Assembly: GCA_016795185.1 (NCBI GenBank)
Contig: JAEUIF010000468.1
Span: 1 to 14,093 of the forward strand
Length of the DNA stretch: 14,093 nucleotides
Reading direction: 5' to 3'
Source: Planctomycetia bacterium
Lineage (GTDB): Bacteria > Planctomycetota > Planctomycetia > Gemmatales > Gemmataceae
Shown here: positions 11,037 to 14,093 of the stretch, in pieces
How the letters are laid out: the number at the start of each line of letters is the position of its first letter
How positions within the stretch are numbered: the stretch's first letter is position 1
Position numbers and translations under genes: made by a program
The notes under the pieces: generated by a model
The model's input: the letters and a program-made list of their open reading frames with translations, nothing else
Database searches by the model: none
Told to the model about the DNA's origin: nothing

Positions 11037-11520
11037 GGCAGGACTCCCGAAAATGGTTCGAGGTCGGTTGGCAACGCGGACGGAAAGGTAAACCCCCGTC
11101 CGGGCACGGAGTCGCAGGGAGAGTCCATCCAGGCCGGTCAGTGCCGCCGATTGGATGGGGGGCATCTACCGACTACCCTCCGTGCCAAGAAAAATCCGGC
11201 TGGCACCGAGCCTCAAAAACCCCAATGTTTTGCCACTGCGCGCCAAAATGCGTTTCCCGCCAGACTCCCCTTGAACCGCCGCACCTCGATTTGGCAGGAT
11301 GGCGGCTGCGGAGCGCCCGGGGCTGCCCGTGATGCGCCGCTCGCGGCTTCGCCGGGCGCGCTTCCCTCGGGCCGCGCCACCCGCCAGCTGGCATCCGCCT
11401 CCGTCCGTGCTACAATTCGCTGGTTCCACGACTCCACCCCGGAGTTCGCCCGTGACGGCCGTCTCCCAGCCAACCACCGTGCCCTCGCAACCCCGGTTGC
11501 TCGACCGGGTCCGGTAGGCC

Positions 11521-12444
11521 TTGCGCGTCCGGCATTACAGCCTGCGCACCGAGGAAGCCTACGTCGCCTGGATCAGACGCTACATCTACTTTCACCACAT
11601 TCGCCACCCGGACGCGATGGGCGCGGCGGAGATCAACGCCTTCCTGACCGACCTCGCCGTCAACGGCCGGGTCGCCGCCTACACCCAGTCCCAGGCCCTG
11701 TGCGCCTTGCTGTTCCTGTACACCACCGTGCTCGAACGGCCCTTCGGCGAGCTGGGCGATGTCATCCGGGCGCGCCGGCCCAAACGCTTACCGGTGGTGC
11801 TGACTCGGCCGGAAGTGCTCCGCGTCCTGGAGCACCTGACCGACACGTATCGCCTGATCGGCCGGTTGCTCTACGGCAGCGGCCTGCGCCTGATTGAAGG
11901 CTTGCGGCTGCGGGTCCAGGACGTGGATTTCGGCCGCCACGAAATCACCGTGCGCCAGGGCAAGGGCGACAAGGACCGTCGGACCATGCTGCCCAGCTGT
12001 ATTGCAGCCGACCTACAGGCGCACATCGAACGGGTCCGCGCGCTGCACCAGCGCGACCTGGCCGAGGGGTACGGCCGGGTCTACCTGCCGCACGCGCTGG
12101 AGCGCAAGCTGCCGCACGCGGCTGCCGAGTTCGGCTGGCAGTACGTGTTTCCAGCTGCCCGGCGCTCGCGCGACCCGCGTTCGGGCGCGGTGCGACGCCA
12201 CCACGCCCACGAAGCGGCCATTTCGCGCGCCCTCACCGACGCCGTCCGCCGCTCCGGTATCCGCAAGCGGGCGACCAGTCATTCCTTCCGGCACAGTTTT
12301 GCGACGCACCTACTGGAAGCCGGCCACGACATTCGGACGGTGCAAGAACTACTCGGCCACGAAGACGTAAGTACCACGATGATCTACTGCCACGTACTGA
12401 ACAAGGGCGGCCTGGGAGTGCCCAGCCCCCTGGACGGGTTCTGA
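11521..12444 (+). CDS. intI: tyrosine recombinase with IntI-specific insertion (integron integrase-like); TTG-start ORF whose conserved N-terminus lies upstream of an in-frame TAG (11515-11517), see findings
   Basis: The [19 protein letters not shown] and [14 protein letters not shown] motifs are present, along with the IntI-specific insertion [37 protein letters not shown]. The catalytic-region motifs RHSFATHLL and [16 protein letters not shown] are also present. Similarity to IntI1/VchIntIA across the whole length is strong and recognisable from memory. Confidence 0.92.
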
Positions 12445-12595
12445 GCTGCGCAAGTATCATTATGGTGTTATTTTGCGCGGATTTTGCAGACGTTATGATT
12501 GTAATAATTTAACATCAATAGACTTGTGTTAATTCTCGCCGGCTGGGAGCAAAGAGTGTTATTTTGCGCCGGCGCAAGATAAACACATGTTAGGC
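12445..12595 (+). other. putative attI site and cassette-promoter region: AT-rich (~40% GC) with two 14-bp direct repeats GTGTTATTTTGCGC (12465-12478, 12556-12569) and core site GTTAGGC (12589-12595), followed by a second core-like GTTAAAT (12596-12602)
   Basis: Seen in sequence. The layout parallels attI1, where two GTTA-containing IntI-binding direct repeats sit upstream of the GTTAGGC simple site. Confidence 0.5.
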
Positions 12596-13207
12596 GTTAA
12601 ATACAACCGAGGCTCAACGATTGGACGCATGGGACCGACTCCGAGCGCTATTTGACACCGATGATGGCGGGTTGTATGACATCCGATTAACGGGCCTTGG
12701 TGAAGCAAGTTTGGTAGCAGCATTTGAGTTCATTCGATCCCGCTCAAAGGTTACGCCGGATGCATTGTTTTGGCACACGACCTTGCAAAAGGACGAGCGA
12801 GTGGCTGACCACCCAGATGCGCCTCGGCTTGTGGCTCAGGGCATAGCCGAACCATTTCATGTGCTCGCGTCTAGTCTTGAGTTCGCCGGCGCCATCATCC
12901 CGGATTTGGGTGTGTTCGTTTGGCCGGATGAGTTGACGTTGGACTACCGCATGGGACCAGAGTGGGATCGACCGCAACTCATCGCGTTATTTGAATTGCT
13001 ACGGCAATTGGTCGCCGTCTCAGATGGCGGAGTCGGATTGGGCCGGCACGTTCTGCCGCAGGTGGACGCCGAATTTGTGCGCGAGTGGCGGGCATACTGT
13101 CAGGTATGCGGCGAAAACGCCTAACCAACCGTTGCACCTGACGCGGCGGCATTACGGTTCTTCAGAGTTCAACGTCTCACCAGCCGCCGCGCAGGTGAAC
13201 GGTAGCG
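12590..13207 (+). mobile_element. gene cassette 1 (from G|TT of attI core to G of attC1 R')
   Basis: Bounded by GTTAGGC (12589-12595) and GTTCGGC (13207-13213). It contains one ORF and attC1. Confidence 0.65.
12621..13124 (+). CDS. cassette-encoded hypothetical protein (167 aa), ~50% GC, TTG start
   Basis: GAGG lies 8 nt upstream of TTG 12621. GC content is clearly below the ~67% host average. The TAA stop falls inside the attC R'' box GCCTAAC. No family recognised. Confidence 0.6.
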   Translation: MDAWDRLRALFDTDDGGLYDIRLTGLGEASLVAAFEFIRSRSKVTPDALFWHTTLQKDERVADHPDAPRLVAQGIAEPFHVLASSLEFAGAIIPDLGVFVWPDELTLDYRMGPEWDRPQLIALFELLRQLVAVSDGGVGLGRHVLPQVDAEFVREWRAYCQVCGENA

Positions 13208-13213
13208 TTCGGC
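13119..13213 (+). other. attC site 1 (95 bp): R'' GCCTAAC ... R' GTTCGGC, imperfect palindrome
   Basis: gcctaac-caaccgttg-cacctg-acgcggcggc ... gccgccgcg-caggtg-aacggtagc-gttcggc. The arms pair with single-base bulges (extrahelical bases). It opens with the same GCCTAAC as the aadA1 59-be. Confidence 0.7.
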
Positions 13214-13756
13214 CAAGAGAGGCTTCCCGTGGGGTTCAGGTTCCGGGGCTTCTTCTCGGACGCCGATGAAGCCGCGATGGCTGCGGCGGTAAGCCGCTGG
13301 CCGTTCTGCACGGCCAAGCCCGTCGTCGATCCGTTCCGCGGCTTCGGCCTGCGTGCCCCGGACCCCGACCGAGAGGCCGACTCCGACGAGGAGTACGAGC
13401 GACTGCTGGAGTTGCCGTTCGCGGTGGAGCGGGGCTTGGCGGAGTTCAGCCTGGGGTTCCCGGACGCGACGTTCGTGTTCATCGACGCCGATTGCGTCGG
13501 CGGCACCTGCGTGTATACCGGGTTCGTGGTACGAGCCGGTGCGGTCCACCTGAGCGTAGCGGACGTGCAGCCGGGGTCGGAGCCGTTGCAGCGACTCCTT
13601 CAGCCGCTCGGTGTGCAGCTACGGTCCGGCTACTTCGCGCCGTTCACACGCGGGTACTGGTAGGCGGCCGAACCAGGCGCTGCAGCAGACGGCGGGGGCA
13701 TGTAGGTTTTCCAGGGTCACAGCTCACTCGGCCCCCGCCGCTGTTGAGCTTGGTCG
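13208..13756 (+). mobile_element. gene cassette 2
   Basis: Runs from TT of attC1 R' (13208) to G of attC2 R' (13756). It contains one ORF and attC2. Confidence 0.6.
13229..13663 (+). CDS. cassette-encoded hypothetical protein (144 aa), GTG start
   Basis: AGAGAGG lies 6 nt upstream of GTG 13229, and the ORF starts 16 nt after the attC1 R' box. An alternative ATG is at 13277. No family recognised. Confidence 0.5.
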   Translation: MGFRFRGFFSDADEAAMAAAVSRWPFCTAKPVVDPFRGFGLRAPDPDREADSDEEYERLLELPFAVERGLAEFSLGFPDATFVFIDADCVGGTCVYTGFVVRAGAVHLSVADVQPGSEPLQRLLQPLGVQLRSGYFAPFTRGYW

Positions 13757-13762
13757 TTCGGC
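13667..13762 (+). other. attC site 2 (96 bp): R'' GCCGAAC ... R' GTTCGGC (perfectly complementary boxes), imperfect palindrome
   Basis: gccgaac-caggcgctgcagcag-acggcgggggc ... gcccccgccg-ctgttgagcttggtc-gttcggc. The L''/L' G5/C5 cores pair and the arms carry bulges. Confidence 0.65.
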
Positions 13763-13780
13763 GGCGGAAGCGGAGTCGCG

Positions 13781-13960
13781 GATGGACCCATACCGGCAGC
13801 TCGCGGCGGGTCCCAGGACGGGGTCGCCGCGCCGGTTCGTGGCCCCCCGGTCCTGGGGCCTCCCGTCCCCGGCCCGCTCCGCCGGGGGGCACGGCTCAGC
13901 GCGTTCAGGGGCGACCGGCGGTGACGGCCGAACCACCGCGTTCAGCTGCCTCCTCTAGCC
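13781..13960 (+). CDS. possible small cassette ORF (59 aa, low complexity, Arg/Gly/Pro-rich)
   Basis: GGAG lies 6 nt upstream of ATG 13781. The stop TAG at 13958-13960 lies just after an attC-like start (GCCGAAC 13927-13933). This could be a spurious high-GC ORF. Confidence 0.2.
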
Positions 13961-14056
13961 CGCATTTCTCACCAGAATAAGGAACCGGCTTGCTTCCGGA
14001 GCGTCAAGTGATTGTAGCCGCAGTCACTTGCGTTTCCTGGAAGGAGCAAGCCGGTC

Positions 14057-14093
14057 ATGACACAGTGTAGCAGCCCGCCGTTGACTTTTCACG
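14057..14093 (+). CDS. 5' end of an ORF running off the window (MTQCSSPPLTFH...)
   Basis: AAGGAG (14041-14046) lies 10 nt upstream of ATG 14057. The SD is embedded in the right arm of a long hairpin (13984-14055). Confidence 0.3.
   Translation, partial: MTQCSSPPLTFH

Follow-up and report, generated by a model that had tools for sequence, protein, structure and literature searches.

The window analysed here, a stretch of 14,093 nucleotides from a Planctomycetia bacterium, carries an AT-rich island immediately 3' of an integron integrase gene, raising the question of whether this island is the attI site of the integron and, if so, where the first cassette begins. To our knowledge, no part of an integron is less conserved or less well annotated than attI, and the IntegronFinder-type tools that we are aware of detect intI and attC sites but not attI, so that chromosomal arrays often have their first cassette wrongly delimited. 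An earlier note, made from the letters of the window, had named the region a candidate attI, in agreement with a cassette boundary that lies in GTTAGGC and with a layout that recurs in nine distinct relatives. Taken as a whole, the observations are best explained if 12445-12595 is the attI of a sedentary chromosomal integron in a Gemmataceae-like planctomycete, with its repeats serving as accessory integrase sites, a reading that we regard as quite likely.

The integrase gene and the cassette array comprise the following features.

11452-12444, + strand: intI, the integron integrase gene (TIGR02249 at 461 bits against a cut-off of 265, profile positions 9-314 of 315)
12589-12595, + strand: R box GTTAGGC, with the predicted crossover between the G at 12589 and the TT from 12590; end of attI and start of cassette 1
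12590-13207, + strand: cassette 1, with an ORF at 12621-13124 (167 aa) and most of attC1
12596-12602, + strand: GTTAAAT, cassette 1 sequence that the relatives do not have
13119-13213, + strand as top strand: attC1, from GCCTAAC (R'', 13119-13125) to GTTCGGC
13208-13756, + strand: cassette 2, with an ORF at 13229-13663 (144 aa) and attC2
13667-13762, + strand as top strand: attC2, from GCCGAAC to GTTCGGC, with extra bases on its 5' arm

The gene to the left of the island is an integron integrase. Besides its profile match, it aligns with Vibrio cholerae IntIA (VchIntIA, 2a3v) over 305 residues with an E-value of 2.9e-88, an alignment that takes in the IntI-specific insertion and the conserved active-site motifs, and its best protein homologues (67-80% identity) are annotated integron integrases from Planctomycetia, Gemmataceae and Fimbriiglobus MAGs. 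The frame that opens at GTG 11452 is broken by an in-frame TAG at 11515-11517, with the remainder of intI intact; the longest intact ORF starts at TTG 11521 and aligns from VchIntIA residue 13. In the relatives, the TAG position is occupied by Q, A, E or H within the motif LLDRVR-x-A(L/C)RVRHYS. The TAG could reflect a pseudogene, a restart at TTG 11521 minus about 22 codons (GTG 11452 to TAG), or a sequencing error. A promoter-like site with an extended -10 (CTGGCA-17-TGcTACAAT) at 11388-11416, about 36 nt before the probable GTG start, is a candidate PintI. The 5' neighbours of intI are large non-cassette genes, including those for a ceramidase-like protein and a PVC-type haem-binding protein, the latter pointing to a planctomycete host, and no attC was found 5' of intI in the window.

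The 5' end of a cassette consists of the six bases past the crossover (TTRRRY), which are complementary to the R'' of its own attC. Cassette 1 starts with TTAGGC, the exact complement within its R'' GCCTAAC, and cassette 2 starts with TTCGGC, complementary to its R'' GCCGAAC. Thus the A at 12592 belongs to cassette 1 and the crossover falls between 12589 and 12590. The relatives can be aligned with the window up to the GTT and begin to diverge past GTTCGGC. These alignments show where incoming cassettes would be expected to join, namely between the G and the TT of GTTAGGC (12589/12590). The earlier note had allowed that the first-cassette boundary might map elsewhere in related genomes, and we found their junction at the same GTT. 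It had also described GTTAGGC and GTTAAAT at 12589-12602 as tandem cores; the positions and the boundary in GTTAGGC are right, but GTTAAAT is cassette sequence, absent in relatives, and not a core.

The direction of the array follows from its attC sites. The bottom (minus) strand of attC1 forms a fold of -31.2 kcal/mol (z -5.7) in which two bases bulge out of the R''-L'' arm; this is the polarity of a recombinogenic bottom strand, so that + is the top strand and the cassettes run with intI. The polarity of attC2 is the same, and its sequence is nearly identical to those of the attC sites of two relatives (L081 and L082). Since the + strand carries intI, the two cassette ORFs and the top strands of the attC sites, the integron is of the chromosomal 'reverse' type. 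Neither cassette ORF has a match among Pfam or NCBIfam profiles. Cassette 1 differs in GC content (0.57, versus 68% for cassette 2 and 65% for the window) and has the R box GTTAGGC versus the clade-typical GTTCGGC, and is probably of foreign origin as judged from its composition and R box. Several cassettes, in L082, L171, L081 and the window, start with TTCGGCGGCGGAGG(G), a conserved 5' end in which a GGAGG Shine-Dalgarno-like motif stands shortly before the ORF. Past attC2, the stretch 13757-14093 holds another GCCGAAC (around 13930) and an AT-richer part with inverted repeats, which may be a third cassette or an attC running off the window.

Reverse (inverted-integrase) integrons are known from Treponema, Chlorobium phaeobacteroides and the planctomycete Blastopirellula marina (PMC6557892, PMC3607928, PMC4889954), and they are paraphyletic (PMC4889954, PMC8352920). 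Like those of Treponema denticola, C. phaeobacteroides and B. marina, the present integron has a chromosomal array with homogeneous attC sites, and its host is a planctomycete as in B. marina; unlike them, it belongs to a separate IntI lineage from Gemmataceae and Fimbriiglobus MAGs, with integrases 67-80% identical to that of the window. The attI of Treponema has been described with L and R boxes only (PMC4909258), and in the reverse-integron literature we found no description of the two-module repeat layout set out below. The site adds a further example to a known class of element, attI, and does not define a new class.

A comparison with the attI regions of related planctomycete integrons, which the earlier note had proposed as a check, gave the same layout in nine distinct relatives. 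The attI sample consists of ten distinct sequences, the window together with L081, L082, L164, L166, L167, L169, L170, L171 and L172; the closest homologue (P0001, 80% identity) has no contig location and stands outside this comparison. The IntI proteins of the nine relatives are 67-73% identical to that of the window, and the ten loci are mutually 65-91% identical. All ten have chromosomal genes 5' of intI. On the 3' side, eight of the ten show small + strand ORFs, same-family attC sites or a first-cassette junction (in L170, the junction and an IS110 gene only), and in L169 and L172 the sequence is seen up to attI. IS110-family transposase genes lie in or just past the cassette arrays of L167 (6749-8969) and L170 (4563-5984).

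Adding L168 brings the clade to 11 distinct loci, five of which have attC-like hits, all 3' of intI and of + polarity by a crude detector. This home-made attC detector is insensitive, having missed attC2 at the working threshold and found it at a lower one, and served for tallies of side and polarity only. Among the matches listed at 67% identity or less, at least 33 loci have attC-like hits 5' of intI only, with 42 of 48 hits in the opposite (classical) polarity, and at least nine have them 3' of intI only, the reverse type. The presence of both orientations agrees with the reported paraphyly of reverse integrons. We found no attI modules in the 3' flanks of these more distant relatives (L001-L162, among the matches listed from genome and metagenome contigs), nor in the 3' flank of intI in L168, where IntI is 72% identical. 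In L168 (4970-5250), a DUF433 gene starts 52 nt past intI and is followed by a small overlapping ORF; L168 may be an integron that lost its attI.

The attI interval begins at 12445, directly after the end of intI at 12444, and contains the following features to the left of the R box.

12448-12478, + strand: module 1, with an inverted arm GCGCAAG at 12448-12454, a 19-nt interior between the 6-nt arms GCGCAA/TTGCGC, and the repeat copy M1 (GTGTTATTTTGCGC) at 12465-12478
12526-12539, + strand: degenerate third repeat copy GTGTTAATTCTCGC, with 3 of 14 mismatches
12526-12543, + strand: extended third copy GTGTTAATTCTCGCCGGC, with 15 of 18 matches to 12556-12573, 30 bp before M2
12556-12569, + strand: M2, a direct-repeat copy identical to M1, which supplies the left arm of the palindrome in module 2
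12559-12582: near-perfect palindrome TTATTTTGCGCC/GGCGCAAGATAA, made up of M2 and the L arm
12572-12586, - strand: putative L arm of the simple site, whose reverse complement GTGTTTATCTTGCGC is an inverted repeat copy with one extra base

The 14-bp direct repeats and the AT-rich island reported in the earlier note were confirmed. The copies at 12465-12478 and 12556-12569 are exact, with a start-to-start distance of 91 bp, and an exact 14-bp direct repeat in a 176-bp region arose in 1 of 5000 mononucleotide shuffles and in 0 of 5000 first-order Markov simulations. The GC content of 12445-12620 is 0.42, compared to 0.654 for the whole window and 0.673 for intI. This low GC had been taken as a hint of horizontal acquisition, which we do not uphold: the attI interval is lower in GC than its flanks in all ten genomes, by 4 to 26 points, and so its composition is no argument for such an origin. 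The motif GCGCAAG(T/A) does recur as had been noted, but its starts are at 12448 and 12572 instead of 12447 and 12573, each having been off by one. Three points are new with respect to the earlier description: the third degenerate copy, the arrangement of the repeats and GCGCAAG motifs into two dyad-symmetric modules, and the L arm as an inverted copy of the repeat. The third copy has no equivalent in the relatives, in which the next-best match on the + strand has five or more mismatches; part of module 2 may have been duplicated locally to produce it.

Because M2 abuts the L arm tail to tail, the two together form a palindrome. Aligned from the crossover GTT, the ten module 2 sequences need no gaps (alignment A1) and give the consensus GTGTTAG-TTGCGC-NN-GCGCAATCTAATAACAA-GTTCGGC. 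In the eight loci whose arm is of the GCGCA- or ACGCA-type, GCGCAA lies 11 nt from the GTT, and in all ten the right arm stays in register with the GTT. The sequence of the arms varies, with the two sides matching each other: left and right read GCGC/GCGC in most loci, GCAA/TTGC in L166, GCC/GGC in L167, CTGCGC/GCGCAG in L172 and GATT/AATC in L170. Over the whole alignment, 87% of the cells in the palindrome are paired versus 27-45% when the arms are slid, five of 11 pairs have changed on both sides, and the covariation score was reached by none of 500 shuffles.

In nine genomes module 1 is 31 nt long, and in the tenth, L172, it measures 32 nt (alignment A2); the head of the repeat lies inside its interior. 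Its arms are 85% complementary versus 13-52% when slid, three of six pairs have changed on both sides, and they carry the same substitutions as the arms of module 2. In the window, L167 and L169, module 1 starts 3-5 nt past the intI stop codon, and among the ten loci this distance reaches 75 nt; the spacer between the modules is variable and without conservation. We also considered module 1 as a second simple site (in L164, the reverse complement reads ...CTAAC-GGAC-GTTGCGC), and discarded this since the GTT is not kept and is CTT or ATT in other genomes.

In all ten genomes, a second direct copy of the genome's own module 2 repeat sits in module 1, with 0-4 of 14 mismatches, and repeat copies are usually closer to each other within one genome than between genomes. 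This within-genome likeness points to concerted evolution. The window and L171 are 88% identical in module 2 and near-identical in module 1, with IntI proteins 70% identical. Across all pairs, module 2 identity is correlated with IntI identity (Spearman 0.65), the pairs being non-independent and the p-value indicative only.

From the L arm to the R box, the relatives read TAATAAC-AA-GTTCGGC and the window ATAAAC-ACAT-GTT, which would fit an L box, with a spacing that varies from 2 to 4 bp. At 12582-12588 of the window, the triplet in register with the AAC of the relatives is CAC, and its AAC lies 2 nt further 5', 4 bp from the GTT versus 2 bp in the relatives. The alignments show a conserved anatomy for the attI of the clade: an R box, a putative L arm at a distance of 2-4 bp on the left, M2, and, about 90 bp upstream, M1 with its inverted arm. 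The window's own copy of the integron may be inactive or decaying, since intI is interrupted by the TAG, the L-box AAC is replaced by CAC and a further, degenerate repeat copy is present. Despite the TAG and the CAC, its modules are intact.

The closest parallel to this anatomy is attI1, for which we used a 59-nt reference that is 100% identical in at least 5000 plasmid records. attI1 consists of a simple site and two direct repeats, IntI1-binding domains favouring attI1 x attC (PMC3146285, PMC8946536), and such direct repeats are absent from most environmental attI sites (PMC3146285). The window and attI1 have in common a crossover in GTTAGGC, a direct repeat that contains GTTAT and a further repeat copy upstream. 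From the GTT of the inner repeat to the crossover G there are 32 bp in attI1 (DR2) and 31 bp in the window (M2, GTT at 12558), and from the inner repeat to the end of the L box 29 bp in both. The L-to-R stretch is TAAAACAAAGTT in attI1 and TAATAACAAGTT in the clade consensus, both with an A-rich L arm, putative in the clade, ending in AAC a few bp to the left. By these spacings, M2 is the apparent positional equivalent of the DR2 of attI1. The earlier proposal of an attI1-like simple site with upstream direct repeats is thus borne out by M2-L-R distances close to those of DR2-L-R and by the second copy in all ten genomes.

The two sites also differ in several respects. Here intI is directed towards attI, whereas in the attI1 case it points away; the repeat is 14 bp long instead of 7 bp; and the inner copy abuts the L arm to give a 22-24 bp palindrome, unlike in attI1. 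The outer copy, M1, is 90-120 bp from the simple site and has an inverted partner of its own, compared to 19 bp between DR1 and DR2. Outside the core the sequences are unrelated, and integrase binding in the present case is predicted by analogy. In half of the relatives the repeat lacks the GTT (GTGAT...), unlike the attI1 DRs, which counts against an attI1-like accessory-site reading, as do the remoteness of M1, the absence of the modules in the close relative L168 and the signs of decay in the window's copy. The environmental attI families (Elsaied et al. 2011; Nield et al. 2001) also have a simple site beside intI and a first-cassette junction at GTT, but are mostly without direct repeats, whereas here the repeats are kept across the whole clade.

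We infer that one protein, most likely IntI, binds the L arm as well as the repeat copies, because these elements are locked to the crossover register, change with the integrase lineage and are alike within each genome, and because co-evolution between attI and IntI is known (PMC8946536). The repeats are likewise predicted to be integrase-binding domains because the L arm carries their sequence in inverted form and all copies evolve in concert. By analogy, M1 and M2 would act as DR1 and DR2 do in attI1, as accessory sites that hold the integrase beside a double-stranded simple site, and the integrase so held would promote attI x attC recombination, by which attC sites folded as bottom strands are integrated. 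Transcription of the cassettes may come from intI read-through or from another promoter.

The two modules have a fixed internal geometry, covary between genomes and are separated by about 100 bp. A different role for these modules, if bound by integrase, would be an architectural one, as a device of a soil/freshwater IntI lineage in which an IntI-bridged DNA loop sets the topology of attI or a palindrome-bound integrase gates read-through into the first cassette. We consider this doubtful.

The repeats and palindromes might otherwise be transcription signals, with M1 and M2 supplying the extended -10 (TGnTAnnnT) of a Pc, or the dyads serving as operators of a dimeric regulator that controls read-through from intI. 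The repeat does read TGTTATTTT in the window and L171, TGATAGATT in L082, TGTTAGATT in L166 and TGTTAGGTT in L170, which would place a -10 about 23 nt before the crossover, and there is no terminator-like site between intI and cassette 1 on the + strand. The TG and the A at position 2 are, however, kept in only five of the ten genomes, and no -35 is conserved in position; the TTGACC of L081, L082 and L164 is 4 nt from the candidate -10. More generally, no sigma-70-type -35/-10 pair upstream of the crossover is positionally common to more than five of the ten genomes, a weak negative as planctomycete promoter rules are poorly known, and the best match in the window (TGGACG-18-TATCAT, 12431-12460) is not kept in the relatives. 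The Pc that the earlier note had placed in the island is therefore unsupported rather than refuted, and read-through from intI, for which the lack of a terminator-like site leaves the way clear, is equally possible as a source of cassette transcripts. An operator of a global regulator would not be expected to drift from GCGC to GCAA, GCC or GATTGA while IntI stays about 70% identical, and a recombination site accounts better than a promoter for a geometry that is fixed relative to the crossover GTT. We judge transcription signals to be an unlikely explanation of the modules.

It is distinctly improbable that the inverted arms are maintained as nucleic-acid hairpins, whether as a 3' stem-loop for termination or stability of the intI mRNA (module 1), an insulator or ribosome-blocking hairpin ahead of cassette 1 (module 2), or DNA cruciforms. 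The compensatory changes that maintain both sets of arms fit a hairpin equally well, a point against the integrase-site reading; the single strands of 12446-12595 fold better than shuffled sequences (z -3.0 and -3.9), and module 1 starts close to the intI stop codon (3-5 nt in the window, L167 and L169). Independent hairpins, however, would leave unexplained both the likeness of M1 and M2 within each genome and the 88% identity of module 2 between the window and L171. Neither stem is followed by a T/U tract and no terminator-like site was called, the loop of module 2 is 2-4 nt only, and an Rfam scan of 12200-14093 at E-values up to 1 gave no family match.

Finally, that the island is a decayed cassette, attC remnant or AT-rich spacer, with the true attI in another place such as the classical position 5' of intI, can for practical purposes be set aside: ATTTAAC (12508-12514) and GTTAGGC (12589-12595) do make a weak minus-strand R''/R' pair and intI is disrupted, but the 5' flank of intI holds non-cassette genes without attC, the layout is kept in nine distinct relatives, the repeat in the window is far beyond chance, and the bulge polarity of the attC sites puts the array on the + strand from 12590. 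The minus-strand attC itself (ATTTAAC...GTTAGGC) was ruled out by that bulge polarity, by the direction of the ORFs and by conservation in relatives.

Read as an attI with predicted accessory integrase sites, the locus provides a sequence-level attI definition for this planctomycete reverse-integron clade, comprising the crossover, the L arm and the two repeat modules, from which exact first-cassette boundaries can be drawn. It also suggests that attI1-like accessory repeats, as predicted here, are not restricted to class 1 integrons, and it makes natural covarying variants available for testing IntI-attI co-evolution. No new mechanism is revealed; the significance is modest, and the main use lies in annotation and in IntI-attI co-evolution studies.

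Repeat-plus-palindrome layouts were also seen by eye in distant integrons, both reverse (L075, L158, L005/L089) and classical (L074, L059, L159). Repeated GATTAGGC- or TTTAGGC-type motifs and a palindrome before the GTT crossover occur in L075 (4925-5090), in the 3' flanks of L158, L005 and L089, and in the 5' flanks of L074, L059, L159 and L027. For example, L075 has TTTAGGCTGTGAG-N-CACAGCG twice and L074 has AGACATCATCTTGATGTCTAATACAGGGTTAGGC. This arrangement may be common to the soil/freshwater IntI lineage as a whole.
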